A stretch of 64,000 nt of DNA from Patescibacteria group bacterium (GCA_041650915.1 JBAZKE010000001.1:611097-675096), one strand, 5' to 3'. Positions 336-61,914 are shown, counted from the stretch's first letter. Program-made: numbers and translations. Notes: generated by a model not told the origin, from the letters alone.

Positions 336-380
336 TACTTAACCGCCTCGACAAATACATTTTATAGTACGCGGTAGTGT

Positions 381-1448: not shown

Positions 1449-1462
1449 ACTGTTCTTCAGGC

Positions 1463-10308: not shown

Positions 10309-10331
10309 AGAGTGTGATGATTATGAGAAGG

Positions 10332-10877: not shown

Positions 10878-10878
10878 A

Positions 10879-13931: not shown

Positions 13932-13942
13932 TCCCACTTTTT

Positions 13943-18886: not shown

Positions 18887-18960
18887 ATTGCTTTCACCAG
18901 TATACCACCCTGAGCCGCCTTTTCAAAATGCTTTTTTGTTGATAGTATGATAGCTGGCAT

Positions 18961-19341: not shown

Positions 19342-19385
19342 ATTACTAAGTTTCGACCGTGCAGCTCCTGTATTTTATAAAATCA

Positions 19386-28974: not shown

Positions 28975-30591
28975 ATGGTAAAAAATTTTATAAATAAAAA
29001 TATACTTTGGCTGATAGTACTATTGTTAGCTATCATCTATTCGAGTTGCTTGATAAAAACTCCACTTTTATCGGCCGGCGATGTGCTGCACCAATCGTGG
29101 ATTGCAGGAGAAATCGCCGATACCGGGACCATACCGATTCAGAATCCCATGACCGGTAATTTTGACATCTTATCACTTTCACCGCTCTTCCAAATTCTCG
29201 GGGCACAATTAAGCTTGCTGACCGGCATTCATGAAATATATATATACGTTGCCCTTAACTTTTTATTAATTCCCATGCTCTGCCTCGGATTTTACCTCGT
29301 TACCAGAAAACTGTTTTTAAACGAAACTATTGCCTTGCTGGCAGTGCTGATATTCTTTTCACTGAACAGTGCAACGTATATCAGCCGCCATATCTCATTC
29401 TTTGTTATTAAAGAGGCTACGATTGCGATTTTTTTAGTCTTTTGCATTCTCTACCTGACAATTACACTGCTGAAACATCAAGGCCGGTATCAAGTACGCT
29501 TACTTGCATTGTATGGGACGCTTGTTGCAGTCACCGCCCTCACGCACCAATTTACCACCTTTTCAATTGTAAGCATTCTGGTTTCCCTTTACGTGCTCCT
29601 CTTTGTACTTTATCCGCAGCTTCGAAAAAAAATTCTATTGCTGGGATCTATCGTTTTCGTTGCAATCATAATAGTGTTTTTATTAAACGCGAACTTACTT
29701 TTTTATCCTGAAACAGGGTATCTCACGACACAACAGCACACCTTTACGAAAGATTTTACCGAGTCTTCTGCGGTTTCTTCAAATGACCTCCGTTCATCAT
29801 ATCTTTCTAGCGTGTTCGACGATGCGTACCATCCGCTTCTCCTGCTATGTGCAGTATTTGGAGGAATCTTTTTTATCATAGTACAAAAAAAATCAGCGCG
29901 TGAAATGCCTGCTCACCTGTTTATACCTGCAGTATGGATCATCACTTTCTTTATACTGGCGCTGCAGCCGATTGGCAACTTCCAGCTCCTTCCTACCCGT
30001 TTTTTGCACTGGACAATTATTCCGCTAGCTATTATCGCCGGGTATGGGTTGTACTTTTTGCTGCTTTCATTCAAGCGTTCATCCATCCAGCTTTCTCTTC
30101 TCGCTGCGCTTGTTATAATTCCCTTAACGATGTCGATAACGCTGAATGCTGATTCTTTCGATAGTACAGAAAATATCAGCTTTAAGGAACTTGAGAGTTA
30201 TGTGCGCATCCATACGATACTTGCTGACTCAGATAATAAAACGGTTGTCAGCGACCCATTTTTCGGCTATAAGCTTATCACGATTTCAGGGGCTCAGTTG
30301 ACCTACCGCTACGAGCGTACAGGAATGTACCGTGACGACAGCCTGGAGTTTGATGCTGTCAAAAAATTCATCTATAGTGACCCTGAATCCGCCTATGACT
30401 ATGCATCATCGAGCGGAGCAAAGTATATTGCCATAAACTACGACGATAAACACCGATACTACGAAGAAGCCGACTATGCAAAATTAGATGATGCTGACCG
30501 CTACAGGCGCATCGTGCATGAATACCCGGGTTCTATGGATGAAATCTCTATTTACGAGATCGTACCGCGTAATAAAGACAGCCTCCGATAG
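28975..30591 (+). CDS. Polytopic membrane protein (M3; about 12 TM plus a C-terminal soluble domain), GT-C-like or glycan polymerase candidate
   Basis: 538 aa. Many TM helices in the first roughly 400 aa; first loop with acidic residues (AGDVLHQSWIAGEIADTG); hydrophilic Tyr/Asp-rich C-terminal domain. Confidence 0.4.
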   Translation: MVKNFINKNILWLIVLLLAIIYSSCLIKTPLLSAGDVLHQSWIAGEIADTGTIPIQNPMTGNFDILSLSPLFQILGAQLSLLTGIHEIYIYVALNFLLIPMLCLGFYLVTRKLFLNETIALLAVLIFFSLNSATYISRHISFFVIKEATIAIFLVFCILYLTITLLKHQGRYQVRLLALYGTLVAVTALTHQFTTFSIVSILVSLYVLLFVLYPQLRKKILLLGSIVFVAIIIVFLLNANLLFYPETGYLTTQQHTFTKDFTESSAVSSNDLRSSYLSSVFDDAYHPLLLLCAVFGGIFFIIVQKKSAREMPAHLFIPAVWIITFFILALQPIGNFQLLPTRFLHWTIIPLAIIAGYGLYFLLLSFKRSSIQLSLLAALVIIPLTMSITLNADSFDSTENISFKELESYVRIHTILADSDNKTVVSDPFFGYKLITISGAQLTYRYERTGMYRDDSLEFDAVKKFIYSDPESAYDYASSSGAKYIAINYDDKHRYYEEADYAKLDDADRYRRIVHEYPGSMDEISIYEIVPRNKDSLR

Positions 30592-30744
30592 CGATATTGG
30601 CACATACAACGATAACGAGCAGCCCGACAAAACCGCTGACGGAATTCAATATGCTGATCCGGCTGTTTTGAAGCAAAACGTCAATGCCAGAAGCAATGGC
30701 ATACAATCCTTTAAGTATATAAAAAATTGTCTCGGTGATCATAT

Positions 30745-31944
30745 TTATTCGCGATAGAGCTTGAGTAACTCACTGACATGATTTACAAATGAATACTGGC
30801 GTAATGATGCAGAAGCGTTTGCACTGAGCTTAATACGCAATACCGGATCGTCGTGCAGCTTGCGGAGTGCACGCTCTAAATCATCCGTATCGCCCGGATT
30901 CACCGTCAGTCCGTTGACGTTGTCAACAATGAGCTCAGGTATCCCGCCAATATCACTCCCTACGACAGGCACCCCATACCCAAAGCTCTCATAGATGGCA
31001 ACGGGAGAATTATCATACCATACCGATGGTACTACCGCCACGGATGCTGCCTTAAACAGCTCTGCTTTTTGCACCCCTGATATGAAACCGGTTAAGGAAA
31101 TCCTGCTGTCCCCCAGCGCGAGCCGCCTTAGGTATGATTCCGTCGGCCCGGTTCCAGCGATAACGAGACGGCAATCATCCCCTTTAATATTTTTGAATGC
31201 GCGCACGAGAACATCAACCCCCTTATGTTCAACGAGCTGACCGATATAAAGTACTGTGAATTCAGATCTACGTTCTCGCTTTTCAGGAGCACCCGCAAAC
31301 CCGACGCCGAGCCGAACGGTTAGCAGTTTGCTCCCATGAAAATATCCGAGTTGGGAGTGGCATTTAAGAACGAACTCTGATGGAGCCGTCACTACATCAA
31401 TACGCCGTGATGTTGAGCGCTTGATGGATTGGAATATTTTTTCAAAAAAATTAAAATGTTTGATTATCTTGCCGCCCCTGAATAGTATTGCCCACGGGCT
31501 GATGAGCTGGTAGTCATGCAGGGTATGGACACTTTTCATGCTGCAGCTGCGGGCAGCTTTAAAAATTGACGTAGAAAAACCCGCAATGTTATGTGAGTGT
31601 ACCACGTCTGGTTTTTCTTTTTTTAAAATTGATTTCACCATGCAGTACGCGTGAATATTCCAGAGATCAATGATGTGCCAAACCGGCTTTAAAAATGCGG
31701 GGAGCTTACGCAGCGTATGAGGGGAGCAAATATTGATAGGATAAAAACGATATACGCGAACGTTGTCCGTAGTCTCTACGGTAGGCCTCAAGACATTGCG
31801 AAAACGGAACTTCGTAGTAGTTATGATAAAAGGATCGACCTCAGCACGAATTTGCCCGATGAGCTTCCGGACATACATCTCTGCTCCTCCAATTTCGTAT
31901 GGCCAGTATAGATTCGTAATGTATGCTACTTTCAGCTTTGCCAT
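30745..31944 (-). CDS. Glycosyltransferase family 4
   Basis: 399 aa. GT4 C-domain (FTVLYIGQLVEHKGVDVLVRAF...AASVAVVPSVWYDNSPVAIYESFGYGVPVVGSDIGGIPELI). Confidence 0.8.
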   Translation of the reverse strand: MAKLKVAYITNLYWPYEIGGAEMYVRKLIGQIRAEVDPFIITTTKFRFRNVLRPTVETTDNVRVYRFYPINICSPHTLRKLPAFLKPVWHIIDLWNIHAYCMVKSILKKEKPDVVHSHNIAGFSTSIFKAARSCSMKSVHTLHDYQLISPWAILFRGGKIIKHFNFFEKIFQSIKRSTSRRIDVVTAPSEFVLKCHSQLGYFHGSKLLTVRLGVGFAGAPEKRERRSEFTVLYIGQLVEHKGVDVLVRAFKNIKGDDCRLVIAGTGPTESYLRRLALGDSRISLTGFISGVQKAELFKAASVAVVPSVWYDNSPVAIYESFGYGVPVVGSDIGGIPELIVDNVNGLTVNPGDTDDLERALRKLHDDPVLRIKLSANASASLRQYSFVNHVSELLKLYRE

Positions 31945-31949
31945 GGTTG

Positions 31950-32966
31950 TTATTTTTTCCCTAATTTTTCTATCAGAGCATTAGCAAACTCATTGATACT
32001 GCCCGGTTCAACGAGCACGTCACCCGGCTGGCTTACCTCAGGATGAGCGCACAGGTTAAAAACTACCGCCGATTTTCCGCATGCGTGGGCTTCCGCCAAT
32101 GGCAAATTATATCCCTCCCATTGACTGGCGGAAACGTATACATCACTTGCCGCATAATACTCCGGCAGCTCATTATCAGGCACAAACCCTGCAAAGATGA
32201 CCGCATTGGTCGCGAGGCTCAATAATTGGCGTTTGTACGCCTCGAATGTGGGCTCCCCTACGATGAGTAGTTTGGCCTGTGGAACCGCCTTAGAAACGCG
32301 TTTAAATGCGTGTAGGAGGGTATGTAATCCTTTGTGGGGTGAAATACGCCCAATATACAACGCCAGGGGTACGTTGCCAATACCTAGGTTTTTTCGGATT
32401 CGTTCTCCTGAAATGCCTGGGTGAAAACGTACCGTATCAATGGTATTGTATTTGACCTCACTTATAACGCCCGTTTCTTCACGTAAAACATCCGCCAAAT
32501 ACTTGCTGATCGAAATAACGCGATCCGCTCTTTTTATCGTTAGGTTTGTCAGCATCCGAAAAATCCGGATATACAGCTGTTCGAAAAAATTTTGAAATGT
32601 TTCCGGCGGGGCGATGCCGTGATTATAATACACATATTCGGTATTAAAAGATTTCTTTGCTTTGAGTGCAATGATATTCATCGGATATTGGTGGCTGTAT
32701 ATGGCGTCAAATCCATTTAATTGCAGGCTCGTATCCATTACTTTTTTAAAATCCAAAAAAAACAAGAGGCGGTAAATTCGCTGCCATCTCAGCGAATAAG
32801 GCATGCCAATCGTTTCTACCTTATAGCCGTGCGGTTCAATATCGGATGAGAGCGTAAAAACAGTTACTTCGTTTCCCTTCCGTACAAGTGATGCTGCCTG
32901 CTGTTCTGCAACGCGATCAATGCCGCTGAACTTGGAAAATGTGGCTGCTAGAATTGCAACTTTCAT
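31950..32966 (-). CDS. Glycosyltransferase family 4 (short form)
   Basis: 338 aa. LALYIGRISPHKGLHTLLHAF...ASDVYVSASQWEGYNLPLAEAHACGKSAVV. SD-like AAGAGG lies 6 nt upstream of the ATG (read from the reverse complement of 32967..32985). Confidence 0.7.
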   Translation of the reverse strand: MKVAILAATFSKFSGIDRVAEQQAASLVRKGNEVTVFTLSSDIEPHGYKVETIGMPYSLRWQRIYRLLFFLDFKKVMDTSLQLNGFDAIYSHQYPMNIIALKAKKSFNTEYVYYNHGIAPPETFQNFFEQLYIRIFRMLTNLTIKRADRVISISKYLADVLREETGVISEVKYNTIDTVRFHPGISGERIRKNLGIGNVPLALYIGRISPHKGLHTLLHAFKRVSKAVPQAKLLIVGEPTFEAYKRQLLSLATNAVIFAGFVPDNELPEYYAASDVYVSASQWEGYNLPLAEAHACGKSAVVFNLCAHPEVSQPGDVLVEPGSINEFANALIEKLGKK

Positions 32967-33076
32967 AGGTACCTCTTTTTCTGAACTATATAATTCTCAA
33001 ACCGTATGTATTTGCCAATTGGTATAGTTTAAAAATTTTAACTAAAAATATACCAAGTATAAAACAATTAAATTGG

Positions 33077-33559
33077 TTAGCATCCTCGAGGGATTTTTCT
33101 AATTGTATCGATAATCTTAGTGGTGGATTGCAAGTTTCTTTTTCGATGAATCAGAACGAGCTTTCCTCCATGTCGTTTTACAGCAGGCGCCTCAACACAC
33201 TTTTTGCCGTACTCCGAGCTGTTAACGTGCACATCTGGACGTACAATATTGATAAATGCAATCGGATTTAGCTCGCCGAAAACATACAGGTAATCGACGT
33301 ATTGAATCGCTTCCAATACCGCAAGCCTGTTGTTCAGCGTCATCACTGGACGGTACTTGCCCTTATATCTTTTAACCGATGCGTCGCTATTGACGCCGAC
33401 GATGAGCACATCACCGTACGTTTTCGCTTTGCGCAGCAAAAAGACATGCCCGGCGTGAAAAATATCAAACGAACCGTTTGTTGTTACGATTTTTTTTCGG
33501 TGTGTCCGCAGTTTTGTAACAAGAGTAACGAGCTCCTGTTTACTGAGCCTTTTATTCAT
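33077..33559 (-). CDS. hldC: D-glycero-beta-D-manno-heptose 1-phosphate adenylyltransferase (RfaE/HldE domain II type, cytidylyltransferase fold)
   Basis: IVTTNGSFDIFHAGHVFLLRKAKTYGDVLIVGVNSDASVKRYKG...LAVLEAIQYVDYL matches the HldE C-terminal domain (GcFDilHaGHv.yL..Ar.lGD.LiVaVNSDaS.krlKG; vL.aLeaVDwV). The track ORF (to 33658) overlaps gmhB by 107 nt, so the start was moved to the in-frame ATG at 33559 (8-nt overlap). Confidence 0.75.
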   Translation of the reverse strand: MNKRLSKQELVTLVTKLRTHRKKIVTTNGSFDIFHAGHVFLLRKAKTYGDVLIVGVNSDASVKRYKGKYRPVMTLNNRLAVLEAIQYVDYLYVFGELNPIAFINIVRPDVHVNSSEYGKKCVEAPAVKRHGGKLVLIHRKRNLQSTTKIIDTIRKIPRGC

Positions 33560-34085
33560 GATGCTGTATCCATTTACCGGCAGCGAGCAAATTATCCGCC
33601 GTATAAGTTGGTTGCCCATCTGCTCGGTTATATGACATTCCGCTGCCTGTTCGAACAAGGATTGTCTTCGTATTCAATGCAATCCCCGCTTGAATATCAT
33701 TAACGCTGTCACCGATTACATAAGATTGTGAAAAGTCAATGTCATATCTTTCAGCGGCCGCTCTATAATTACCGAGCTGGGGCTTGCGGCAATTACATGA
33801 TTCTTCTGGTGTATGCGGGCATAGATATATTGCACAAATGGTAATGCCTTGCTCATCAAGCTGCTTCAGCATGTTTTTCATAAATGCATGGCATTCTTCT
33901 TGGGTGAAATATTTACGTCCGATACCGGATTGGTTTGTAATAATGATGAGGATAAATCCCAGTTGTTGCAGGAGACGAAGCCCTTCAATGACCCCTGGAA
34001 AAAATTCCAAATCTTCGATCTTGTAAGTATACCCATGATCTACGGTGATTGTTCCGTCCCGATCTAAAAAAACTGCTTTGTGCAT
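33552..34085 (-). CDS. gmhB: D-glycero-D-manno-heptose 1,7-bisphosphate phosphatase (HAD family)
   Basis: VFLDRDGTI (HAD motif I), IITNQSG, Zn-binding insertion CPHTPEESCNCRKP typical of GmhB, GDSVNDIQAG (motif IV). Confidence 0.85.
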   Translation of the reverse strand: MHKAVFLDRDGTITVDHGYTYKIEDLEFFPGVIEGLRLLQQLGFILIIITNQSGIGRKYFTQEECHAFMKNMLKQLDEQGITICAIYLCPHTPEESCNCRKPQLGNYRAAAERYDIDFSQSYVIGDSVNDIQAGIALNTKTILVRTGSGMSYNRADGQPTYTADNLLAAGKWIQHHE

Positions 34086-34088
34086 ACT

Positions 34089-35090
34089 TCAGACCGTAAG
34101 CTGCCGCATCAATTCTTGTTTCGTAACAGTTGACGTGCCGCGTTTGCCAATGCTAATTTTTGCGGCGTATGCGGCAAGCGTCGTAGCTTCTATCGGTTGC
34201 AGGGTGCCTGCGGTGAGTGCAATAACGGCGGCGACAGTATCGCCGGCGCCAGAAACATCAAGTACCGTATCTGCAAATGATGGGATTGTCTTGCACAATC
34301 CGTTTCCGGTGACCAGATACATACCTTTACTTCCCCGGGTGAGAAGTACGTTCTTGATTTTTAAATCTCTTTGCAACTGCCGCGCCAATTCGGTAAGTTT
34401 TGCCTCCGATTCATCATAGGTACTGTACATTTTTAAAAGCTCAATTTCATTCGGCGTAATGTAATCAGCGCCGCTATAATATGATTTATTCTTTGGCTTT
34501 GGATCGATGATGACGTACTTCCTGGCAGCTTGAGCGCGTTTAATGATAGTTGACGTTAATCGCTTGGTGAGTACTCCTTTCTGATAATCTGAAAAAAGGA
34601 CGCAATCGACCTGTTTTAAAGCCGAAGTGGCATAGCGAATAATTTTATTTTCCAGCTGCAAACTTATTTTTTTCACATGTTCTTCGTCAACCCGGAGCAA
34701 CTGTTGTCCATGCGATACGATCCTCATCTTGACAATTGTCGGCCGATGATGATCCACAAATATCCCCGCTTCATCCATCTTGCTTTTCTTGAGCGTATGG
34801 AGAAAACTGCCTGCAAGATCCTGATGATTCCCCTGATCGCCGATAACTCCGGCCAAGAGAACCTTTCCCCCTAATGCACGAATATTTTCCGCTGCATTGG
34901 CCGCACCGCCGAGCTTGTAATATTTTTTTTCTGTAGTCACAACCAGCACAGGGGCTTCTTGTGAAATAGAGCGCGGCGACCCCTCAATATACAAATCGAG
35001 CATGAGATCTCCAATGACTAGGATTCTTTTTTTTGAAAAAGTTTTTACGGCTGAAATATACTTGGAATTAGATTTCATTTTCATATACAA
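34089..35090 (-). CDS. hldA: D-glycero-beta-D-manno-heptose 7-phosphate kinase (pfkB/ribokinase family; RfaE/HldE domain I type)
   Basis: KRILVIGDLMLDLYIEG, PVLVV, GGAANAAENI, C-terminal DVSGAGDTVAAVIALT (pfkB signature 2); 333 aa. Confidence 0.8.
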   Translation of the reverse strand: MYMKMKSNSKYISAVKTFSKKRILVIGDLMLDLYIEGSPRSISQEAPVLVVTTEKKYYKLGGAANAAENIRALGGKVLLAGVIGDQGNHQDLAGSFLHTLKKSKMDEAGIFVDHHRPTIVKMRIVSHGQQLLRVDEEHVKKISLQLENKIIRYATSALKQVDCVLFSDYQKGVLTKRLTSTIIKRAQAARKYVIIDPKPKNKSYYSGADYITPNEIELLKMYSTYDESEAKLTELARQLQRDLKIKNVLLTRGSKGMYLVTGNGLCKTIPSFADTVLDVSGAGDTVAAVIALTAGTLQPIEATTLAAYAAKISIGKRGTSTVTKQELMRQLTV

Positions 35091-35103
35091 ATAACTTTAC
35101 CTG

Positions 35104-35706
35104 TTACGTGAAGAGTCCTTGCTCGACGAGGTCGCAGATAACGTGCAGGACAGTTATGTGCCCTTCCTGAATCCGCGGGGTGTCAGTATGCGGTATGACG
35201 ATGGGGATATCAAGATGTTTGAGAATTTCCTTGCCGTTCAATGATGCCAGTCCAATGATCCGCATTCCTGCGGTTTTTGCCGCAAGAATCGCCTGCCCAA
35301 TATTTGCCGAGTGGCCGTGTTTTTGGAATGAAACATCACTCGTTGTCATCACAATTAAAATATCCTCTTCTTTCCCGAGTGCCTGGACTTGCTTTTTAAA
35401 AATTTCTTCAAACCCAGAATCATTGCCAATAGACGTTAACGCTGAGCTATCAGTTGTTAGTGCTATGGCAGGAAGCGGCTTCCGGTCTATGTTAAACCGA
35501 TTTATGAATTCTGCCGCAAAGTGCTGTGCATCAGCGGCCGACCCTCCATTGCCGCACACTAAAACCTTGCCGCCACCTTTAAGGCAGCTGAGAATGGCTT
35601 CCGTTGCCTGTAGTACGCTCTGTGGCAATGTTTTAGCCATTTCATATTTCAGTGCAGCGCTCTGCTCAAATTGCTGTTGTACCTGCATTGTGGAAATTTT
35701 TGCCAT
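35104..35706 (-). CDS. gmhA: Phosphoheptose isomerase (sedoheptulose-7-phosphate isomerase, SIS domain)
   Basis: KVLVCGNGGSAADAQHFAAEF (GmhA signature), ALTTDSSALTSIGNDSGFEEIF; 200 aa. Confidence 0.85.
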   Translation of the reverse strand: MAKISTMQVQQQFEQSAALKYEMAKTLPQSVLQATEAILSCLKGGGKVLVCGNGGSAADAQHFAAEFINRFNIDRKPLPAIALTTDSSALTSIGNDSGFEEIFKKQVQALGKEEDILIVMTTSDVSFQKHGHSANIGQAILAAKTAGMRIIGLASLNGKEILKHLDIPIVIPHTDTPRIQEGHITVLHVICDLVEQGLFT

Positions 35707-35721
35707 ACAATTTAATATTTT

Positions 35722-36891
35722 TTACGTCACGGTATGACCTGAAAATGCCACTTTAGTATACACGTTTGCTGTTAGTTGTGCCATTCTATCCCATGTGTAA
35801 TTTTGCACTATATCCGTTGCTGCCTTTACGTAACGGCCATACTGCTGATCGTTTTTTAAAAAAGCAGTAAGAGCGCGCGCTAAAGCTTCTCGATCACCTG
35901 CCTCGACCAGTTGAGCGCCCAAACCACGACGAGTGACCTCGGCAATCGGCTCAATATTTGTTGCTACTACCGGTATCCCGCACGCCATTGCTTCCGCGAT
36001 TACGATGCCAAATCCTTCTACGGCGGATGGCAAGCAAAAAACGTGGGACTGTTTCAGAACACGGATGACTTCGAGATATGCATTGATGAAACCCAGCAAC
36101 CGTATATTGTTCTGCAACCCGAGGCGGATAACCTCGGCTTCCAGTTTTTTCCGTTCGGGGCCAGTTCCAATAATGAGACACTGCACTGACGGGATATCCC
36201 TCTTGACCTGCGCAATGGCAGCTACCAAATCACCAACGCGCTTGTACGGCACGAGACGCGTGATGGAGCATACAGTCGGTTTAGAAAACTTTTCGACATG
36301 GAGTTGCCGCAGTGTATCCAAATCAACGCCGTTGTATACGACTGAAATATCACTATTAACAATTCCGGCTTTTATCAAATTGTTCTTGGTATAATTGCTG
36401 TTTGCGATAAAGTGGGTCCAGCGGCGATGCAGGTAAAACCGTTCGTAGAGTTCGCCAATATACCCCATGATGCCGAATATCTGTATCCATCGGCCTTTCC
36501 AAACGTCATGGCACGTCGCGATACGCGGCACTTTCAGTTTTCGGGCGGCGAACACTGCTGGAATGTAAGCAATAAAGCTCTGCGCGTCGATAATATCAGG
36601 CTTGAGATGGATTGCCTCACGGTACAGCTGGAGCATGAGCAGAAAGCGTTTCCAGAGCGAACCTCGGAACGTATAGCGAAACGCCGGCCCGCAATGAATA
36701 ACCCGAACGCCAGAAAAATGCTGCTCATGAGGAAGCGAGTCCTCATGGGCGGTCAGCACGGTTACTTCAAATGTTTTTTGGAGCCGTTTCGCTATCTGCC
36801 ACGAACGCATTTCAACACCGCCTCGCGTTTCGCCGTGTTCACTTCTTGGAAAAAATTCGCTAACGATTAATACTTTTTTTCTTGCGTTCAT
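35722..36891 (-). CDS. Glycosyltransferase family 4
   Basis: GT4 C-domain (HVFCLPSAVEGFGIVIAEAMACGIPVVATNIEPIAEV). Track ORF begins at TTG 36942; the GT4-typical N-terminus MNARKKVLIVSEFFP starts at ATG 36891, a 32-nt overlap with the upstream small membrane gene. Confidence 0.7.
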   Translation of the reverse strand: MNARKKVLIVSEFFPRSEHGETRGGVEMRSWQIAKRLQKTFEVTVLTAHEDSLPHEQHFSGVRVIHCGPAFRYTFRGSLWKRFLLMLQLYREAIHLKPDIIDAQSFIAYIPAVFAARKLKVPRIATCHDVWKGRWIQIFGIMGYIGELYERFYLHRRWTHFIANSNYTKNNLIKAGIVNSDISVVYNGVDLDTLRQLHVEKFSKPTVCSITRLVPYKRVGDLVAAIAQVKRDIPSVQCLIIGTGPERKKLEAEVIRLGLQNNIRLLGFINAYLEVIRVLKQSHVFCLPSAVEGFGIVIAEAMACGIPVVATNIEPIAEVTRRGLGAQLVEAGDREALARALTAFLKNDQQYGRYVKAATDIVQNYTWDRMAQLTANVYTKVAFSGHTVT

Positions 36892-37231
36892 CAGTCGCTT
36901 CGCTAATTTCAACATCCCCCCGCAGCGCCACCCGACGGACAATCTGGGTAATCTCCCGCTCGATATGTTCCATTTTCACATACAATCGGAACATTCCATA
37001 AAACAAGACAAGCAGTGCGAGGTAAATCACTGCGTCGACGCCACGTCCAACGCCGAGCATGTCAGCAATGATTGTGGTGGTTTGCGGAAGAACTGCCGCT
37101 ACGGCGATCCCAATCCACAGTACGCTCCAGAGTAAAAATTCAATAAGCGTTACGTGCTTTTCACGGAATCTTAAAAAAACGCGTGACAGTGCAAAAACGG
37201 TAAAAAGTATTATCAGGATTTTAATTGCCAT
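36860..37231 (-). CDS. Small 3-4 TM membrane protein (DUF2304/GtrA-like), partner of the adjacent DPM1-like GT2
   Basis: 123 aa with hydrophobic helices (ILIILFTVFALSRVFL, LLWSVLWIGIAVAAVL, VIYLALLVLFYGMF). Starts 1 nt after the GT2 stop. Confidence 0.45.
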   Translation of the reverse strand: MAIKILIILFTVFALSRVFLRFREKHVTLIEFLLWSVLWIGIAVAAVLPQTTTIIADMLGVGRGVDAVIYLALLVLFYGMFRLYVKMEHIEREITQIVRRVALRGDVEISEATDERKKKSINR

Positions 37232-37232
37232 A

Positions 37233-37907
37233 CTACTTGGTAATCCTTAAAACGATAAGTTTGATGAACGTCTTGACTCCGACGAAAAAACTCTGCCCTT
37301 TTGACAGCGAGTAATCGGAATAAATAGCCTTGATGGGAATTTCTTCATATTTAAAATTGTGAACTTTGATTTCTCGAATGATTTCCGACGAAACTTCCAT
37401 TCTGTTTGCTTTCAAGTCAAGGGAACGTGCGGCTTCATTGCTCAGTGCGCGCAATCCCGATTGGCTGTCTGTAACCATCATGCCGAACAAAAGGTACGTA
37501 ATGATATTGCCGATTCTGTTATATGCTCGGCGTATCAGCGGCATGCCACCCTTGGTCAATAACCGTGATCCGATGACAACATCAGCTTTACCGGATTTGA
37601 TGGGTTCAACAACGCGCTCAATGTCTTCTACGAGATGTTGGCCGTCCGAATCAAACGTAACGACAATATCGGCGCCCATGTGAATTGCTTTTGCTATGCC
37701 CGTACCCAGTGCACCGCCCAATCCCCTATTGAGCACATGAGAAACGACCACAACGCTTTCGGCATGTGCAATCGTTCCAGTCTGGTCTGTAGAACAATCG
37801 TTCACAACAATTATATTATCCGGGCTATACGTATGCTTCAGATTCCTCAGTACTGAACCGATCATCTGTTCCTCATTGTACGCCGGTACTACGATGCAAA
37901 CTTTCAT
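37233..37907 (-). CDS. GT2 polyprenyl-phosphate glycosyltransferase (DPM1/GtrB-like catalytic domain without C-terminal TM helices)
   Basis: VCIVVPAYNEEQMIGSVL...IIVVNDCSTDQTGTIA...RGLGGALGTG...VVTFDSDGQHLVEDI is the canonical dolichol-phosphate mannosyltransferase-type GT-A domain; only 224 aa. Confidence 0.8.
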   Translation of the reverse strand: MKVCIVVPAYNEEQMIGSVLRNLKHTYSPDNIIVVNDCSTDQTGTIAHAESVVVVSHVLNRGLGGALGTGIAKAIHMGADIVVTFDSDGQHLVEDIERVVEPIKSGKADVVIGSRLLTKGGMPLIRRAYNRIGNIITYLLFGMMVTDSQSGLRALSNEAARSLDLKANRMEVSSEIIREIKVHNFKYEEIPIKAIYSDYSLSKGQSFFVGVKTFIKLIVLRITK

Positions 37908-38425: not shown

Positions 38426-39994
38426 GTGTTCAATTTCATCAAAAAACGGAGAGAAAAAATCACCATCAATCACACAAAACGGATCGTCATCGAGGTATTT
38501 GTAATTGCGTGTTTTTTTGTCATACTCGGCCTAATCAATAAAAATTTCCTCCTCTTTTCTAGCAGCGTTCATTTTACTTATTCGTATCCGGAAAATCAGC
38601 TGATCATTACACCTCTCACCCCAGTGAATAATGAAGGTTTGATTGGCCAATCGGATGCACTGCAATACCAAGTTAACAAACAAATGCTTGCGAGTGAGAC
38701 TACAAATTTCAGTGTGCAATTGCCGGAACCAATGGGCAATAATTTTTCAGAAGCGGTCATTACTGTGCAGTATAATCCACAGAATGAATCCGAAGCGCTC
38801 CTTGGAATTAAAAATGCGTCGACTGGAGATTTTGATTATAAGCCGATTTATAATCGGATACTCGAAGAACTCTCGTGGAATTCAGTCACAAACGGCACGA
38901 CCACACTTTTCCAAAAAAACCAATCTATTGCCACTTATGAAAACTTTATTGATAACCCGCCGCAAGTTTTGAAGAATGAAATCAATAATGGCGACCAGAC
39001 AACAACATCATTTCAGGCATCAGGAGCACAGTACTACTCTATTTTTGATCAATCACAGATTGTTGACAAACAATTGCAGAATTATTACTCACGAGCGACA
39101 ACTACTTCCACTCCTTTCATCGAAGGCGGCATGCGTGCCTACACTTATGTCCAATCTGAATCAACGCTGGAAATCACTGTAGATAAAATCGATAATAATT
39201 ATTATGACGGCGCTGACCCATTAGAAATCATTGTTTATGACGCCACAGGGAATGAAAAACTGCACGTGAGTTTGAAAGATGATGGTAATATCACAAATAA
39301 TACCCAGAATGGCTTGTTGCAATCGCGCTTGATTCCAATCAACGGCGCGCACGGATTGTATACTATCGTGCTGATCGGAATGGACACCTACAGCAGGCTC
39401 GCGACGAATCAGCCATTGTTGGTAGTCGAAGATAGCCTGATGATTGATGAATCTTTTTTAGAAATACAAAATGATCCGTTTACGCTTTTTACCGAAGCAT
39501 ACAACGTCATATTTCCTACCTGGCATTTCCCCGCAACTAACCAAACAGTAATCATTAATGGTTCGCGGGAGTTTATCCTCGATGACACACGTTCAGAAGT
39601 CAAATCGGTTTCACTGCATCTTGGGCAGCCGGAACATACGTTAAACTCTATTACGCTCAATAAAAACCATGTGAGCATAAAAACCGCGGATACTCCCGTA
39701 AAACGATTTTTCTCTTTTTCAAAAGATTCATACTTTAATCCCTCCCCGGTTACACTGACGGCTTTTAATGCTGAGAGTGACCTTGCTGACGACTCACCGA
39801 TTGAATATATTCTCACTGACTATCAGCTGACCCAGATGAAAAACGGCTCCATGGTCACTACGCTTACGTTCGATTTGGATAGCAATTCCTACTTTGATGA
39901 TCGCACAATTCAATTTGCGCTCAAAATTCCAGATTTTCATAAAACAAAAAATAATTTTGAGATTCACTCAATTGATATTGAACTGCAGCGGTAA
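38426..39994 (+). CDS. N-terminally membrane-anchored large extracellular protein (P2, 522 aa), paralog of the 15633..17174 product
   Basis: GTG start (no in-frame ATG before the TM); TM IVIEVFVIACFFVILGLI; shared blocks with P1 (see that feature). Convergent with and adjacent to the GT-C-like gene 39997..41538. Confidence 0.5.
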   Translation: MFNFIKKRREKITINHTKRIVIEVFVIACFFVILGLINKNFLLFSSSVHFTYSYPENQLIITPLTPVNNEGLIGQSDALQYQVNKQMLASETTNFSVQLPEPMGNNFSEAVITVQYNPQNESEALLGIKNASTGDFDYKPIYNRILEELSWNSVTNGTTTLFQKNQSIATYENFIDNPPQVLKNEINNGDQTTTSFQASGAQYYSIFDQSQIVDKQLQNYYSRATTTSTPFIEGGMRAYTYVQSESTLEITVDKIDNNYYDGADPLEIIVYDATGNEKLHVSLKDDGNITNNTQNGLLQSRLIPINGAHGLYTIVLIGMDTYSRLATNQPLLVVEDSLMIDESFLEIQNDPFTLFTEAYNVIFPTWHFPATNQTVIINGSREFILDDTRSEVKSVSLHLGQPEHTLNSITLNKNHVSIKTADTPVKRFFSFSKDSYFNPSPVTLTAFNAESDLADDSPIEYILTDYQLTQMKNGSMVTTLTFDLDSNSYFDDRTIQFALKIPDFHKTKNNFEIHSIDIELQR

Positions 39995-39996
39995 TC

Positions 39997-41538
39997 TTAC
40001 TGCGTGCTGAGCAGAATAAATCGATTATCCTGGTTCAGCTTCCGAAAATGTGAAATCAAATACTCGGTCAAATCCCCATCCCCCTCTTCCGGGGGATTTT
40101 TCAGTAAAAAATGCGTAATGCCATATTGCTCAATAGTACTGTAAATGGTTTCCGGGTTTGTATAAGCTAATTTAATATCGTAATAACCTTGGGCCTGAAC
40201 AGCAGTTTGTGTAAAACTTGCATGTTGTGGCCTGACGCCGACGACATTGAGGCCGGTAAGGCCGGAAAAAATGTGGGACTCAATTGCATCGGTAAACACC
40301 ACACTTCGTGCTGGCAAGTTTTTTACTATCCCAAAATCAATAGCGGAACCCCCGTAGTAAGACTGATCATATGTATACGGCTCCCAATCATGGAACACCA
40401 TCATTTTTTCCGAAGTATAAGCCGAGCCGATCGTTAATAAACTTACAATGATTACCGAAACGGTGCGCCAGTGCAGCCGCTGTAAAAAGACAGCCCACCC
40501 CACTGCACCTGAGAAAACAAGCAACGGGAAAAACCTCCAATAAAACCGGACGCTATTGGGATTGAGGCCTGATAAAATAATTACAGTTGCGACAATAAAG
40601 AGGATGAAAAAAAATAAATACCTTTTTTTACGGATCAGCATAAAGAACCCGAGTAAACTAAAGCCCGCTAATGATATCCACGCTCTTAGCAATGTTCCGC
40701 GATCAATATCGGAAATATTTTCTATAGTCGGATTTGTTTGTGTAATAGCCGCGCCCTGTTTTTCAAAAAAACTTACTTGGCTATAGAGCGGCCAAATAAA
40801 ATTAATGACGACAACAATGATTGGAACAAGGGCAAGCGTAATTGCCTTCCTTCGTGGATACCGCTTCTGAAAAAAAGAAACTAGCACGTATGTAGCTATA
40901 GCAACGAAAAGGAAAACACCCGATAAAATGTGAGAGTTCCAAACGATATAGCTCAAGAACAGAACGGAAATGTAATTGCTGCGGGTATATTTTTCTATTC
41001 TTAAATATCGGTTCATAAACGCCAGTACAAGTAAAGTGCATCCTAATGCAAAAAAATGAACAAACGGGCCCATCCATAGTATCTCGTTCAAGGAAAACAT
41101 GCCTGCCGCTACATTTTTACTCGCACCCCACAAAAAAATTAATAGTATAGGGAAAATAAAAGCGGTACGGCGCGAATAAAAAAATTCACGTGCAAAAATG
41201 GTCGCAGCAAATAAAAAAAATACGACATTAACAATTCCAAAAAAAAGATACGTATTAATGGTCGAGATGTTTAAAATTTTTGATACAATCGCGACTGCTG
41301 CAAGATATGACCCACCTCTTGGATCCCTGATTCCATCGGGGTAAAAAGGCGCATTGATATCGGAAAAAGTATCTGCCTTTAATTCATTCACGATCGCTAA
41401 ATGGGTCCACAGATCGGTATTGCTCTTCTGGGGGTACAGATCGATATAAAATGAATAAACACATACAACAATGGCAAGTAGGATTAAAGCCACGTATCCA
41501 ATTTGCCTCGGTTTTAGCACAATGCTAATCACATTCAA
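39997..41538 (-). CDS. Large polytopic membrane protein, GT-C-like glycosyltransferase candidate (M2)
   Basis: 513 aa, at least 11 TM. First loop motif FYPDGIRDPRGGSY parallels the M1 loop YDEPLNDAAGG. TTG start at 41538 (an in-frame GTG lies 6 nt downstream); N-terminus uncertain. Confidence 0.45.
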   Translation of the reverse strand: MNVISIVLKPRQIGYVALILLAIVVCVYSFYIDLYPQKSNTDLWTHLAIVNELKADTFSDINAPFYPDGIRDPRGGSYLAAVAIVSKILNISTINTYLFFGIVNVVFFLFAATIFAREFFYSRRTAFIFPILLIFLWGASKNVAAGMFSLNEILWMGPFVHFFALGCTLLVLAFMNRYLRIEKYTRSNYISVLFLSYIVWNSHILSGVFLFVAIATYVLVSFFQKRYPRRKAITLALVPIIVVVINFIWPLYSQVSFFEKQGAAITQTNPTIENISDIDRGTLLRAWISLAGFSLLGFFMLIRKKRYLFFFILFIVATVIILSGLNPNSVRFYWRFFPLLVFSGAVGWAVFLQRLHWRTVSVIIVSLLTIGSAYTSEKMMVFHDWEPYTYDQSYYGGSAIDFGIVKNLPARSVVFTDAIESHIFSGLTGLNVVGVRPQHASFTQTAVQAQGYYDIKLAYTNPETIYSTIEQYGITHFLLKNPPEEGDGDLTEYLISHFRKLNQDNRFILLSTQ

Positions 41539-41763: not shown

Positions 41764-43113
41764 ATGGACCCAGAAAATAATCAAAATATTCAAGCATCTT
41801 TTTTACAGGATTTTAGTTTTCAAAATTTGAAAAATACTTTTTTCTCGAAAACAGGAAAAGATGCCAGCAAACTGTTCATATCAAATATTGTCGCAACGGG
41901 CATTGGACTCGCTGCAAGCTTGATAACCCTGAAAATTTTCAATGTCAATGAAATCGGCATCCTTGCATCAACCAATAATTTAGTCGGCATCGTAGCCGGA
42001 ATAATACTATCCGGCATTAATATAAGTTTTGTGAGGTATTTGAGCGATTATCTGAAAAAGGATAAGGCTATCGCCAGCGCGCTTACAAAACAAATTCTCA
42101 AAATCGAATTTATTTTTGCCATCTCGGCTTTCATTGTTATTTTTTTCTCTTCATCATTTTTAGCCAACGAAGTTTTTCATAAGAGTGACTTAGATTTTTT
42201 CATCAAATTAGCTGCGATCAATATCTTTCTGAGCATTGCTATTTCTTTTTATAAAACATATTTCCAGGCCTTAGAAAAATTTTCATTTATTTCATTATCA
42301 ATCATCATTCCGGCAATACTCAACATATCGTGTATTGGATTTTTGGCGTATTTGAATGCACTGACGCCAGAAAGTGTCCTCTACATTTCCATAGGGATCA
42401 CCGGTCTTTTTCTGTTCATATCACTATGGTATTACCAAAAAAATAAAATCCAAACTGAAACCGAAAAAAAATTGCCAAATGAATTTTTAAAAAAGTTTTT
42501 GCACTATAGCAAATGGGTAGTTTTAATGGCAGTAACCTCATTGATTTTTTCAAGAATTGATATATTTATGCTCACCTCCATGGTGGATTTAGGGCAAGTC
42601 GCGCTCTACTCTTTTGCATTCACCATATACAGCACGTATCTCATCGTATTAAATACTATTAATACGGTATTGTTGCCAAAAATTTCTTCTTTCCAAACTT
42701 ACCTGGAATTGCGAATAGCAGCCAAAAAAATATTCAAATTTTCAATATTGATCGCAATCATCATTCTCCCCACAATATTTTTTATCAGGCCATTAACCCA
42801 GTTTATTTTCCAAAATAAATTTGACGGGTCCATGCCGGTTATATACGTTTTTTTCTTAAGCCTGCTTATAAGTATCATAGTAAACCCAATTGTCAACATT
42901 CTGTTAGTCATTAAGCGGCAAAAATTTTTAAGCCTATTGACGTTCGCCATACTCATCTTGAATGTCATTGGCAACCTAATCTTTATACCCCGGTATGGAA
43001 TCATAGGAGCCGTCTGGGTAACGGCTTGTACCCATATTTTTTCAAATGTCATTGCAGGAATTAAGGTAATGCTAGAACTAAAAAATAAATATAAAACGTC
43101 AGATACCATTTAA
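41764..43113 (+). CDS. wzx: Wzx-type polysaccharide flippase (MOP superfamily, Polysacc_synt family)
   Basis: 449 aa, about 12-14 TM; N-terminal conserved region (LFISNIVATGIGLAASLITLKIFNVNEIGILASTNNLVGIVAGIILSGIN). Confidence 0.7.
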   Translation: MDPENNQNIQASFLQDFSFQNLKNTFFSKTGKDASKLFISNIVATGIGLAASLITLKIFNVNEIGILASTNNLVGIVAGIILSGINISFVRYLSDYLKKDKAIASALTKQILKIEFIFAISAFIVIFFSSSFLANEVFHKSDLDFFIKLAAINIFLSIAISFYKTYFQALEKFSFISLSIIIPAILNISCIGFLAYLNALTPESVLYISIGITGLFLFISLWYYQKNKIQTETEKKLPNEFLKKFLHYSKWVVLMAVTSLIFSRIDIFMLTSMVDLGQVALYSFAFTIYSTYLIVLNTINTVLLPKISSFQTYLELRIAAKKIFKFSILIAIIILPTIFFIRPLTQFIFQNKFDGSMPVIYVFFLSLLISIIVNPIVNILLVIKRQKFLSLLTFAILILNVIGNLIFIPRYGIIGAVWVTACTHIFSNVIAGIKVMLELKNKYKTSDTI

Positions 43114-61104: not shown

Positions 61105-61111
61105 ATTCAAA

Positions 61112-61870: not shown

Positions 61871-61914
61871 ACCTGCGCCAACCTAAACATTAAATCGCAC
61901 TGTAATAAGCCTAT

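Follow-up and report, generated by a model that had tools for sequence, protein, structure and literature searches.

In Burkholderia, ADP-heptose is made by four separate enzymes (GmhA, HldA, GmhB, and HldC) that work through beta-heptose 1,7-bisphosphate, and the product is epimerized by HldD and bound for the core of lipopolysaccharide (LPS). In E. coli, the kinase and the nucleotidyltransferase are fused in HldE, which is accompanied by GmhA, GmhB, and HldD and by the transferases WaaC and WaaF. Another route, which proceeds through GDP-alpha-heptose, also uses GmhA and GmhB, but its kinase is of the GHMP type (HddA) and its nucleotidyltransferase is HddC; its product is D,D-heptose, destined in a monoderm for a surface glycan other than LPS. 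In mycobacteria, PpgS is paired with a DUF2304 protein. As relayed in PMC11573728 and PMC11461863, Tang et al. (Science 2024) describe NDP-heptose biosynthetic enzymes across kingdoms, and the physiological role is given there as unknown. ADP-heptose biosynthesis was also noted, by metabolic reconstruction, in Paceibacteria genomes from the candidate phyla radiation (CPR), where it is listed as the L,D form (PMC9166423). That ADP-heptose genes occur in CPR and across kingdoms is already published.

Here we describe a heptose locus on a 679,916-bp contig that is assigned to a Patescibacteria (CPR) metagenome-assembled genome. By "the window" we mean the whole stretch of DNA that was analyzed (64,000 nucleotides); together with 10 kb to the right of it, the inspection covered ~74 kb. 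The best explanation of the locus as a whole, to which we assign a probability of roughly 65%, is a standard ADP-heptose cassette that feeds a non-LPS surface glycan in a monoderm CPR host. The pathway is orthodox and the host is unusual; this is not a new kind of system.

A predicted four-gene pathway to ADP-heptose

Four packed heptose-pathway genes lie on the minus strand at 33077-35706, in the order gmhA, HldA-type pfkB kinase, gmhB, and HldC-type nucleotidyltransferase (NTase) (Table 1). gmhA and the kinase gene are separated by 19 nt and the kinase gene and gmhB by 3 nt, and gmhB overlaps the NTase gene by 8 nt. The enzyme assignments are predictions from homology and conserved motifs. 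By these comparisons, each of the four enzymes was confirmed to be far closer to its heptose-pathway family than to any paralogue, and gmhB scored above its NCBIfam equivalog cutoffs while the other three enzymes scored below theirs.

Table 1. Predicted features of the window, with the basis for each prediction.
Feature	Position in window	Strand	Basis
Polytopic membrane protein, conserved, possibly GT-C-like	28975-30591	+	faint profile matches, synteny
Two GT4 glycosyltransferases downstream of NTase gene	30745-32966	-	Pfam, synteny
Presence/absence cassette, four genes plus 110-nt spacer (2.75 kb)	32967-35721	.	comparison with L013
HldC-type heptose-1-phosphate nucleotidyltransferase (adenylyltransferase)	33077-33559	-	public gene call, 160 aa; long ORF to 33658
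gmhB (heptose-1,7-bisphosphate 7-phosphatase, HAD-IIIA)	33552-34085	-	public gene call, 177 aa
HldA-type pfkB kinase	34089-35084	-	public gene call, 331 aa
gmhA (sedoheptulose-7-phosphate isomerase, SIS domain)	35104-35688	-	public gene call, 194 aa; long ORF starts 35706
GT4 directly upstream of gmhA	35722-36891	-	Pfam Glycos_transf_1 + Glyco_transf_4
PpgS-like GT2 + DUF2304 membrane partner, putative polyprenyl-phosphate sugar synthase pair	36860-37907 (GT2 37233-37907; DUF2304 36860-37231)	-	PF00535, PF10066
Wzx-type flippase	41764-43113	+	PF01943, PF13440
Second Wzx-type flippase copy	49691-51175		
GT4-methyltransferase-GT9(N/W)-methyltransferase module	59168-63120	-	Pfam; conserved
GT9-family GT-B glycosyltransferase, Asn/Trp variant subfamily	60091-61104	-	PF01075, 60.1 bits vs 22-bit cutoff

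The best HMM match of gmhA is the phosphoheptose isomerase model NF010546 (219.9 bits, E 2.6e-65), yet this is below the 276-bit cutoff; TIGR00441 gives 176.6 bits (cutoff 209.45), and the model for the paralogue DiaA is weaker than either (145.1 bits, E 2.1e-42). All of the best 10 matches in a PDB search are phosphoheptose isomerases, led by GmhA 5i01 (4.7e-49). The protein keeps the motifs GNGGSAADAQHFAAE and IQEGH..H, and an alignment to 5i01, 2xbl, and the relatives places the active-site motifs QHFAAE, TTS..S.N, and IQE.H...H, with a 7-residue insertion after TTS in the CPR clade. The kinase matches TIGR02198 (rfaE_dom_I) at 317.8 bits (E 7e-95), short of the cutoff of 345, versus 85.4 bits (E 4e-24) for the ribokinase model. 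It carries a GAGD motif, and its best solved relative is HldA 4e84 (4.4e-49), versus 8.6e-11 for the best ribokinase in the PDB. For gmhB, the beta-type model NF006506 (183.8 bits, cutoff 178) and TIGR00213 (155.7 bits, cutoff 149.6) are both exceeded, and the alpha-type model NF050049 is not (141.2 bits, cutoff 250). Its best solved relative is E. coli GmhB 3l8e (3.5e-37), and in alignment it shares with this structure the DxDGT and CxH..CxC (zinc) motifs. The NTase is of the cytidylyltransferase fold class, with HAGH and QSTT motifs, and is nearer to rfaE domain II than to TagD or CoaD: it matches TIGR02199 (rfaE_dom_II) at 151.1 bits (E 1.7e-44; cutoff 181.5 not reached) versus 46.6 bits (E 3e-12) for TagD, and its best solved relative is HldC 5x9q from Burkholderia (1.2e-23). 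The PRK11316 profile matches both the kinase and the NTase.

Because the kinase is of the pfkB/HldA type, the NTase has the HldC fold, and GmhB lies above the beta and below the alpha cutoff, we infer that the donor is ADP-beta-heptose rather than GDP-alpha-heptose. GmhA would convert sedoheptulose 7-phosphate to heptose 7-phosphate; the HldA-type kinase would then make the beta-1,7-bisphosphate, GmhB would remove the 7-phosphate, and the HldC-type enzyme would adenylylate the 1-phosphate. These results agree with an initial annotation of this DNA, which had recognized the four genes as separate steps of the beta route and not of the HddA/HddC route, had typed the kinase as pfkB and the NTase as cytidylyltransferase/HldE-C in fold, and had seen no HldD-like protein alongside.

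A variable cassette in a conserved locus

We compared the block with loci from relatives. Those with the kinase (49-54% identical) order their genes as GT2-DUF2304-GT-gmhA-kinase-(gmhB-NTase)-GT9. The run gmhA-kinase-gmhB-NTase is kept in L002, L003/L004, and L005, and gmhA-kinase alone in L011 and L012. Directly downstream there is a Pfam-annotated GT9 in L002, L004, L005, L011, and L012 (the L003 copy has no recorded Pfam match). This canonical GT9, adjoining the pathway genes, is almost certainly the transferase in the relatives, and the L002 copy is closest to heptosyltransferase II (123 bits, cutoff 134.6). No such GT9 is found beside the NTase gene in this window.

The closest relative, L013, aligns with the window at 29035-32967, and the alignment picks up again inside the GT4 gene that ends at 35722. 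In L013, the two GT4 genes that border the cassette abut directly and the four heptose genes are absent. Because L013 stays colinear to the left and right of the missing genes, we consider the block to be a presence/absence cassette, and on this comparison it behaves as a strain-variable insert in an otherwise conserved glycan locus. All four of its genes are intact in the alignments, with their catalytic motifs conserved.

The flanking genes are shared more widely. The GT4 upstream of gmhA keeps this position in L005, L011, and L012, and L013 has a copy as well (52% identity to the L005 neighbor, 57% to the L013 copy). The two downstream GT4 genes take the place of the GT9 and GT4 of L005 and share 63-67% identity with the corresponding L013 genes. 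Since L013 has these genes and lacks heptose genes at that site, the flanking GT4 genes are probably not heptose-specific. The membrane protein on the far side has faint matches to the LA_3751 family (E 0.0056) and DUF6541 (E 0.11), and a PDB profile search with it gave no match. Its homologues are near the heptose genes in L002, L005, L011, and L012, and in L013 the homologue adjoins the same flanking GT4 genes. Finally, a GT2/DUF2304 pair is upstream of the heptose genes in L002, L005, L011, and L012. In this window, the best NCBIfam match of the GT2 is PpgS (NF058614, 160.6 bits, cutoff 370), and the adjacent DUF2304 protein scores 83.7 bits against a cutoff of 25.5.

The glycan island and the likely use of heptose

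Around the cassette, the island contains two Wzx flippases, a PMT_2-type GT-C enzyme, the PpgS-like GT2 with its DUF2304 partner, RmlABCD (dTDP-rhamnose), and many GT4 and GT2 genes. It looks like the surface-glycan machinery of Gram-positive bacteria, and CPR has been placed within a monoderm clade (bioRxiv 10.1101/2021.05.31.446380). Among the annotated ORFs of the 64-kb window and the 10-kb right flank, there were no lipid A or Kdo genes (lpxA-D, kdsA/B, or waaA), and no initiating phosphoglycosyltransferase was recognized in the window. Because of the monoderm lineage, the glycan-island context, and the lack of lipid A/Kdo genes in the DNA inspected, heptosylation of a non-LPS surface glycan is the best reading. 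The initial annotation had also favored a non-LPS glycoconjugate, and the host lineage and the island content support it in this; the pili that it included in the picture have no demonstrated connection to the pathway.

Given a monoderm CPR host, the heptose most likely goes to an oligosaccharide of a surface glycan. From the gene context, it would be joined, at the cytoplasmic side of the membrane, to an oligosaccharide carried on polyprenyl phosphate, and the glycan could be a cell-wall polysaccharide or could decorate an S-layer or pilins. The glycan would be flipped by Wzx and completed outside the membrane by GT-C-type enzymes, with the PpgS-like GT2/DUF2304 pair perhaps providing a lipid-linked monosaccharide for the outside step.

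Candidates for the heptosyltransferase

The window contains only one GT9, which lies 25 kb from the pathway genes. It falls below the cutoff of every model for LPS heptosyltransferases I, II, and III: it matches TIGR02195 over its full length at 74.6 bits (cutoff 134.6) and the other two models at 70.8 bits (cutoff 170.2) and 47.2 bits (cutoff 185.3). An AF2 model, built from a shallow alignment (3 sequences) and with a mean pLDDT of 73.9, has its best Foldseek matches in the PDB to the GT9 structure 3tov (TM 0.77), WaaF (0.72), and WaaC (0.64-0.66). At the canonical GT9 NDSGxMH site, the motif is THNSGPMWIGAAL, with THNSGPMWIG aligned opposite NDSGLMH of WaaF. Asn256 and Trp261 thereby occupy the positions of the heptose-contacting Asp261/His266 of HepI, which are Asp269/His274 of HepII (bioRxiv 10.1101/2021.06.16.448588 and 10.1101/2022.06.13.495986), and the protein is without two of HepI's three heptose-hydroxyl contacts. 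The Asn/Trp replacement is seen in 18 of the 31 closest 50%-identity clusters. Across this subfamily, Asp16 (SLGDF; catalytic Asp13 in HepI) and Arg183 (NRSW; Lys192 in HepI) are kept.

The gene is part of a conserved GT4-methyltransferase-GT9-methyltransferase module whose order is identical in L014, and in other organisms the subfamily includes proteins in which GT9 is fused to GT4 (P0128) or to a methyltransferase (P0131). The one short contig that bears a homologue from the Asn/Trp subfamily has no heptose genes. The initial annotation had offered this protein as the heptosyltransferase of the pathway. It is a genuine GT9, but because it is an Asn/Trp variant inside a GT4-methyltransferase-GT9 module, its use of a heptose donor is conjectural. 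The candidates for the heptosyltransferase in this genome are this GT9, a GT9 outside the window, or a neighboring GT4.

Alternative explanations

A serious competitor, at somewhat less than even odds, is that the Asn/Trp GT9 transfers another sugar within the GT4-methyltransferase module, and that the heptose is used by a GT4 or by a GT9 outside the window, or else that the cassette is a remnant left after an adjacent GT9 was lost. The conserved replacement of Asp/His, the 25-kb distance, and the short contig without heptose genes all point this way, as do the two GT4 genes that stand where L005 has GT9 and GT4 and the loss of the whole cassette from L013. But the protein retains the catalytic Asp and the Arg that stands opposite Lys192 of HepI, its Asn could still hydrogen-bond sugar hydroxyls, and it has a predicted GT9 fold and is the sole GT9 of an island whose genes supply the kind of donor that GT9 enzymes use; the four genes of the cassette are also intact, with conserved motifs. 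A different acceptor seems far less probable. In direct protein heptosylation, as reportedly performed with ADP-heptose by autotransporter heptosyltransferases such as TibC and Aah, the targets might be CPR pili or S-layers; we consider this very improbable because Wzx, the many GT4 and GT2 enzymes, and the GT-C-type membrane proteins are typical of lipid-linked assembly, and because the top folds for the GT9 are of the LPS type, with no TibC among the 50 fold matches listed. We give the least credence to ordinary synthesis of the LPS inner core, in which a diderm host with lipid A/Kdo genes elsewhere would pass ADP-heptose to WaaC/WaaF-type enzymes. ADP-heptose with a GT9 is the classical signature of LPS, the GT9s of relatives are nearest to heptosyltransferase II, and the inspection covered ~74 kb of the contig. 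Still, the contig is labeled Patescibacteria and CPR has been placed in a monoderm clade, the inspected DNA has no lpx, kds, or waaA, none of the GT9s examined reaches any LPS heptosyltransferase cutoff, and the neighborhood is one of Wzx, GT-C, PpgS-like GT2, and rhamnose genes.

Two other alternatives concern the sugar nucleotide. That the NTase yields CDP- or UDP-heptose, instead of or besides ADP-heptose, is improbable. Promiscuity towards CTP and UTP has been linked to the STTR5 arginine of heptose NTases, the fifth residue of the motif (F/L)XXGXSTT (PMC11573728, PMC11461863); this NTase has Gln there (KRNLQSTT) and its CPR relatives have Leu or Ser. Some HldC/HldE-type enzymes do accept CTP or UTP, and STTR5 is not strictly needed (PMC11461863), but the best family and the best solved relative of this NTase (TIGR02199 and Burkholderia HldC) are heptose-1-phosphate adenylyltransferases. 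It is also unlikely, though less so, that HldD is encoded elsewhere in the genome and that the glycan bears L-glycero-D-manno-heptose. Only part of the genome was inspected, but no HldD was found among the SDRs of the window (the top score for TIGR02197 is 57.5 bits, cutoff 274.6), in the 10-kb right flank (where two SDRs are UDP-glucuronate decarboxylase-like and GalE-like), or next to the heptose block in the relatives' loci. Given that no HldD is nearby in the ~74 kb inspected, the donor most likely remains the D,D epimer, as had been proposed from the outset, although the coverage of the contig means that this proposal is not fully supported.

Within the favored reading of a cassette for a non-LPS glycan, we tentatively suggest something more specific, which we consider possible but rather doubtful. 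ADP-D,D-heptose may be a strain-variable unit of the glycan in one lineage of Patescibacteria, with the cassette gained and lost, and an unrecognized Asn/Trp GT9 subfamily, acting jointly with a SAM methyltransferase and a GT4, may install a methylated D,D-heptose or another sugar. If so, such differences in the glycan could adjust how these episymbionts attach to their hosts or how phages recognize them.

Comparison with known systems

The closest counterpart is the split pathway of Burkholderia, which shares the four separate enzymes and the bisphosphate chemistry and supplies the best solved matches for two of them (HldA 4e84 and HldC 5x9q). It differs in its HldD step, in its LPS destination, and in the STTR5 arginine of its HldC; the present genes lie in a surface-glycan island of a monoderm CPR bacterium, with no HldD close by. 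The E. coli enzymes have homologous domains (PRK11316), include the best solved match for GmhB, and share the GT-B fold of the GT9, but the kinase and NTase are separate here, no HldD or genes for a lipid A or Kdo acceptor were seen in ~74 kb, and the heptose-binding Asp and His of HepI/HepII are missing from the GT9 of the window. The GDP-alpha route resembles this locus in its monoderm, non-LPS setting, its D,D-heptose, and its use of GmhA and GmhB, and is set apart by its GHMP/HddA-type kinase and HddC-type NTase, where this locus has pfkB/HldA-type and cytidylyltransferase-fold HldC enzymes. The GT2 and adjacent DUF2304 membrane protein recall mycobacterial PpgS/Rv3632, although the GT2 is far under the PpgS cutoff.

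The enzymes of Tang et al., in the account relayed by the two later papers, likewise occur outside the classical Gram-negatives and combine a monodomain heptose NTase with isomerase, kinase, and phosphatase; unlike them, this NTase is without STTR5, and its neighborhood suggests a particular role, namely in a surface glycan that involves GT9 enzymes. The survey in PMC9166423 reports the same pathway in the same radiation but lists the module only, whereas the gene order, the linkage to GT9, the missing HldD, and the variability of the cassette are described here.

A split ADP-heptose pathway encoded by four adjacent genes

The interval 33077-35706 contains four ORFs, all on the minus strand, which we name gmhA, kinase (pfkB family, HldA-type), gmhB, and nucleotidyltransferase (HldC-type). 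We took their boundaries from public gene calls on identical DNA (a Logan contig); the called start of gmhA is a later methionine than that of the 200-aa long ORF. Because the genes are separated by just 19 nt and 3 nt and then overlap by 8 nt, they are most likely co-transcribed. Scans of 30-42 kb for promoters (28 versus 27.7 in shuffled controls, or no excess) and terminators (15 versus 11.9, not above control) stayed at the shuffled level and so gave no reliable operon boundaries. Rfam and tRNA scans of the whole window gave no match. Upstream of gmhA, on the same strand and with small gaps or overlaps, are a GT4 gene, a DUF2304 gene, and a GT2 gene; downstream of the nucleotidyltransferase, a 110-nt spacer is followed by two further GT4 genes.

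Coordinates and annotation of features in the window and its right flank (scores are NCBIfam bits/cutoff)
Feature	Position	Strand	Length	Details
Type IV pilus genes	21-2531			At the left edge: end of a PilC-like gene, PilM, PilO; housekeeping genes next
rmlA, rmlC, rmlD, rmlB (dTDP-rhamnose), with HD and NUDIX genes	9574-13937			Split by HD-domain gene (11715-12308); NUDIX hydrolase (13392-13937) after them
PMT_2-type GT-C	17219-18886			Beside a DUF1616 protein and the UbiA-family gene
UbiA-family prenyltransferase	19359-20234
Conserved membrane protein	28975-30591		538 aa
Nucleotidyltransferase	33077-33559	-	160 aa	rfaE domain II TIGR02199 151.1/181.5; nearest paralogue TagD 46.6
gmhB	33552-34085	-	177 aa	Beta-type GmhB NF006506 183.8/178; alpha-type GmhB NF050049 141.2/250
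Kinase	34089-35084	-	331 aa	rfaE domain I TIGR02198 317.8/345; nearest paralogue ribokinase 85.4
gmhA	35104-35688	-	194 aa	Phosphoheptose isomerase NF010546 219.9/276; nearest paralogue DiaA 145.1
GT4	35722-36891	-
GT2	37233-37907	-		Best match PpgS, 160.6 bits, below cutoff; DUF2304 protein comes next
Two large proteins	38426-41538		522, 513 aa	No family match; position next to GT2/DUF2304 kept in relatives L005 and L013
GT9	60091-61104
Right flank (L015)	1-9985 of L015			Island continues: GT2, UDP-glucose dehydrogenase, GalE-like epimerase, UDP-glucuronate decarboxylase, GT2 with GtrA, S8 peptidase, PDZ protease

The four proteins have the Pfam domains SIS_2 (gmhA), PfkB (kinase), HAD (gmhB), and CTP_transf_like (nucleotidyltransferase). 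Their best solved relatives are GmhA 5i01 (4.7e-49), Burkholderia HldA 4e84 (4.4e-49, versus 8.6e-11 for the best ribokinase), E. coli GmhB 3l8e (3.5e-37), and Burkholderia HldC 5x9q (1.2e-23). Expected motifs are visible in the alignments: GmhA has GNGGSAADAQHFAAE and IQEGH..H, the kinase has GAGD, GmhB has DRDGT and CPH..CNC, and the nucleotidyltransferase has HAGH, VNSDAS, and STT. Three of the four enzymes score somewhat under the curated NCBIfam equivalog cutoffs (only gmhB is above), which fits a divergent lineage and gives no hint of a different function. The initial annotation had allowed that the kinase and nucleotidyltransferase might profile as ribokinase and TagD instead; these identities are ruled out, as the heptose models lead by more than 200 bits and more than 100 bits, respectively. 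Its reading of a pfkB/HldC pathway of the beta-anomer, ADP type agrees with the family scores, solved relatives, and motifs, and by homology the proteins are predicted to be typical components of the split GmhA/HldA/GmhB/HldC pathway.

GmhA proteins from the CPR clade share a 7-residue insertion, D(V/I)SFxK(N/H), directly after the TTS phosphate-binding motif (residues ~118-124 of the window's GmhA). It is not in one DPANN homologue, nor in the solved GmhAs 5i01 and 2xbl.

Relatives of the pathway and its neighboring GT9

Among 5.8 billion clustered proteins, the kinase has a nearest group of 13 proteins at 49-55% identity. Below these are two longer proteins (39-40%) and then a tier at ~40-45%, in which the source-named proteins are all from DPANN archaea or Fusobacteria; a search of GTDB genome contigs found matches only in DPANN archaea and one Mailhella. 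The DPANN homologues in that scan are 39-42% identical. In three of the DPANN loci (L007, L009, and L010) the kinase ORF is longer, at 463-476 aa, which suggests a fusion to another domain, and in another (L006) gmhA, kinase, and gmhB are separate genes.

We recovered gene contexts for five of the close group, with loci L003 and L004 given as one context. The order is GT2-DUF2304-GT9-gmhA-kinase-gmhB-nucleotidyltransferase-GT9 in L002, GT2-DUF2304-GT4-gmhA-kinase-gmhB-nucleotidyltransferase-GT9 in L005, and gmhA-kinase-gmhB-nucleotidyltransferase-GT9, with no GT2/DUF2304 pair upstream, in L003/L004. L011 and L012 have GT2-DUF2304-GT4-gmhA-kinase-GT9, with gmhB and the nucleotidyltransferase not in the block (L011:7405-10204 and L012:7405-10145 are gmhA and kinase, then GT9 directly); either these genes lie elsewhere or the organisms would stop at heptose 1,7-bisphosphate. 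A Pfam-annotated GT9 lies immediately downstream of the pathway genes in L002, L004, L005, L011, and L012, and its L003 counterpart lacks a Pfam match on record but is near-identical in sequence to the L004 GT9. These downstream GT9s retain the canonical (D/E)SGP(M/I)H motif. That a GT9 so regularly adjoins the pathway genes is the strongest evidence for the pathway feeding a GT9 heptosyltransferase in this lineage.

The window differs: L005 is syntenic with it across 25.4-41.5 kb and has a GT9 and GT4 pair after the nucleotidyltransferase, where the window has two unrelated GT4 genes instead. Searches with an HMM built from CPR GT9s and with tblastn found a single GT9 in the window, the gene that the initial annotation had called the heptosyltransferase. 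It is a real GT9, with a full-length match and a GT9 fold in the predicted structure (AF2 model from a 3-sequence alignment, mean pLDDT 73.9), and it retains the catalytic Asp (D16) and, where HepI has Lys192, an Arg. Its assigned role is less secure, however. At the positions of Asp261/His266 of HepI and Asp269/His274 of HepII (the LPS heptosyltransferases WaaC and WaaF), it has Asn256 and Trp261; the canonical residues form hydrogen bonds to the hydroxyls of heptose, and their conservation among HepII homologues is at least 90% (bioRxiv 10.1101/2021.06.16.448588, 10.1101/2022.06.13.495986). The Asn/Trp pair is a subfamily trait and not decay: in a search of cluster representatives (1.84 billion clusters), STNSGPMW occurs in 18 of the 31 closest (E up to 1e-30), and the canonical Asp/His in 98 of the best 150. 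The gene belongs to a GT4-methyltransferase-GT9-methyltransferase module that is also found on an unrelated short contig (L014), and the subfamily includes natural fusions of GT4 to GT9 (protein P0128) and of a SAM methyltransferase to GT9 (P0131). A related Asn/His member (P0134) carries a fused radical SAM domain. The donor is perhaps ADP-heptose, perhaps the D,D form specifically, or another sugar; that this enzyme is not the heptosyltransferase is a serious possibility, at somewhat less than even odds.

Presence or absence of the heptose genes

In L013, the closest relative that we found, the syntenic membrane protein is 67% identical (BLASTP) and the flanking genes are 57-83% identical. 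L013 is colinear with the window at 29035-32967 and again from the GT4 at 35722 to ~41.5 kb, and the GT4 genes on either side of the window's heptose genes are immediate neighbors in L013. The four genes and the 110-nt spacer (32967-35721) thus form a presence/absence polymorphism. Since these GT4s are kept in L013 without the cassette, they are probably not heptose-specific. The cassette proteins are 48-60% identical to those of L002, L003, and L005, flanking genes show about the same divergence (43-52% between the window and L005), and the GC and GC3 of the cassette resemble those of its flanks. We slightly favor loss in the L013 lineage over recent gain in the window genome. An imperfect 22-nt inverted repeat (77% complementary) lies exactly at the cassette ends (33061-33082 and 35701-35722), but we rejected it as a mobility signal: by our estimate, chance alone would produce about 10 such pairs in 3.3 kb of DNA this AT-rich.

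The stretch from the PDZ protease to the two SDRs, found in the window's right flank, is instead located immediately upstream of the heptose module in L002, L011, and L012 (in L002 together with the UDP-glucose dehydrogenase), which implies that the island has been rearranged in the window genome.

Which heptose, and for what?

Work covered in PMC11573728 and PMC11461863 connects an Arg at position 5 of (F/L)XXGXSTT with heptose nucleotidyltransferases that use CTP or UTP; both sources describe this Arg as not an absolute requirement. Burkholderia HldC carries it (FEHDRSTT). In the window's enzyme this residue is Gln (KRNLQSTT), and in its CPR relatives it is Leu, Ser, and Leu, so ADP-heptose is the likeliest product and CDP- or UDP-heptose quite improbable. 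The absence of an adjacent HldD (the 6-epimerase), noted initially, holds over a wider span. The SDR-family proteins of the window are RmlD and RmlB (both above cutoff), a PseB/FnlA-like dehydratase, and a weak RmlD-like reductase, and the best HldD score among them is 57.5 bits (cutoff 274.6). Starting from the GT4 at 61915-63120, we recovered 10 kb beyond the right edge; the two SDRs in this flank are UDP-glucuronate decarboxylase-like (1.3e-76 to 4gll) and GalE-like (4e-97 to 4zrm), and they lie next to the UDP-glucose dehydrogenase gene. As there is no HldD within these ~74 kb, the inference of a D,D-heptose stands locally, and an L,D-heptose made via a distant HldD is unlikely.

ADP-heptose is usually taken to mark Gram-negative LPS and is also seen as an innate-immune agonist. 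Ordinary LPS synthesis is nevertheless highly implausible here: we annotated essentially all sizeable ORFs in the window and saw no genes for lipid A, Kdo, or outer-membrane biogenesis, and CPR bacteria and Chloroflexi fall together in a monoderm clade (bioRxiv 10.1101/2021.05.31.446380). The kinase shows 100% identity to an NCBI protein annotated 'Patescibacteria group bacterium', encoded on a 679,916-bp contig. The absence of a secretin gene from the window is expected for a monoderm; the pili are secretin-less to that extent, as first described, but we found no link between them and the heptose genes. The island looks like Gram-positive-style surface-glycan machinery, with two Wzx-type flippases, about 12 GT4/GT2 enzymes, several SAM methyltransferases, amino-sugar genes (DegT, acetyltransferases, two UDP-GlcNAc 2-epimerases, and a PseB/FnlA-like gene), and several large membrane proteins that match no known family. 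(The 538-aa membrane protein has no notable Pfam or NCBIfam match, four homologues in all from a word-index search, and no PDB match with a five-sequence profile.) Uses of ADP-heptose outside LPS include autotransporter heptosylation and septacidin (PMC11461863). The conserved gene module points to use of the donor in a surface glycan; we consider direct heptosylation of proteins very unlikely. Overall, we put the probability that this ADP-heptose pathway serves a non-LPS surface glycan at roughly 65%.

Proposed route and comparison with known systems

By homology, GmhA would isomerise sedoheptulose 7-phosphate, the kinase would phosphorylate the product at O1, and GmhB would remove the 7-phosphate. 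After the nucleotidyltransferase step, with HldD locally absent, the sugar would be left un-epimerised. The gene context suggests that an inverting GT-B enzyme then moves the heptose onto a lipid-linked oligosaccharide, and that Wzx flips the product for membrane-embedded GT-C-type enzymes to complete the glycan.

Because the pathway is textbook and its occurrence in CPR is already known (an ADP-heptose module in Paceibacteria genomes has been published; PMC9166423), the advance is incremental. New here are the conserved gene module in CPR, the lack of an adjacent GT9 in the window, the Asn/Trp subfamily of GT9s that is partnered by a methyltransferase and a GT4, and the cassette polymorphism. 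This subfamily and the polymorphism are small, testable leads on glycosyltransferase specificity and on CPR surface variation, respectively. According to Tang et al. 2024 (as cited in PMC11573728 and PMC11461863), heptose enzymes are known far beyond Gram-negative bacteria. The locus is a clear genomic case of an ADP-heptose donor that would be made by a bacterium without an outer membrane, and a concrete starting point for the question, raised by such cross-kingdom finds, about the role of heptose nucleotides outside LPS. The pairing of GT2 and DUF2304 is known from polyprenyl-phosphate sugar synthases whose products supply GT-C enzymes in the extracytoplasmic space (mycobacterial PpgS/Rv3632), and the GT-C, DUF1616, and UbiA genes at 17219-20234 recall the polyprenyl-phosphate pentose donor systems of actinobacterial cell walls.
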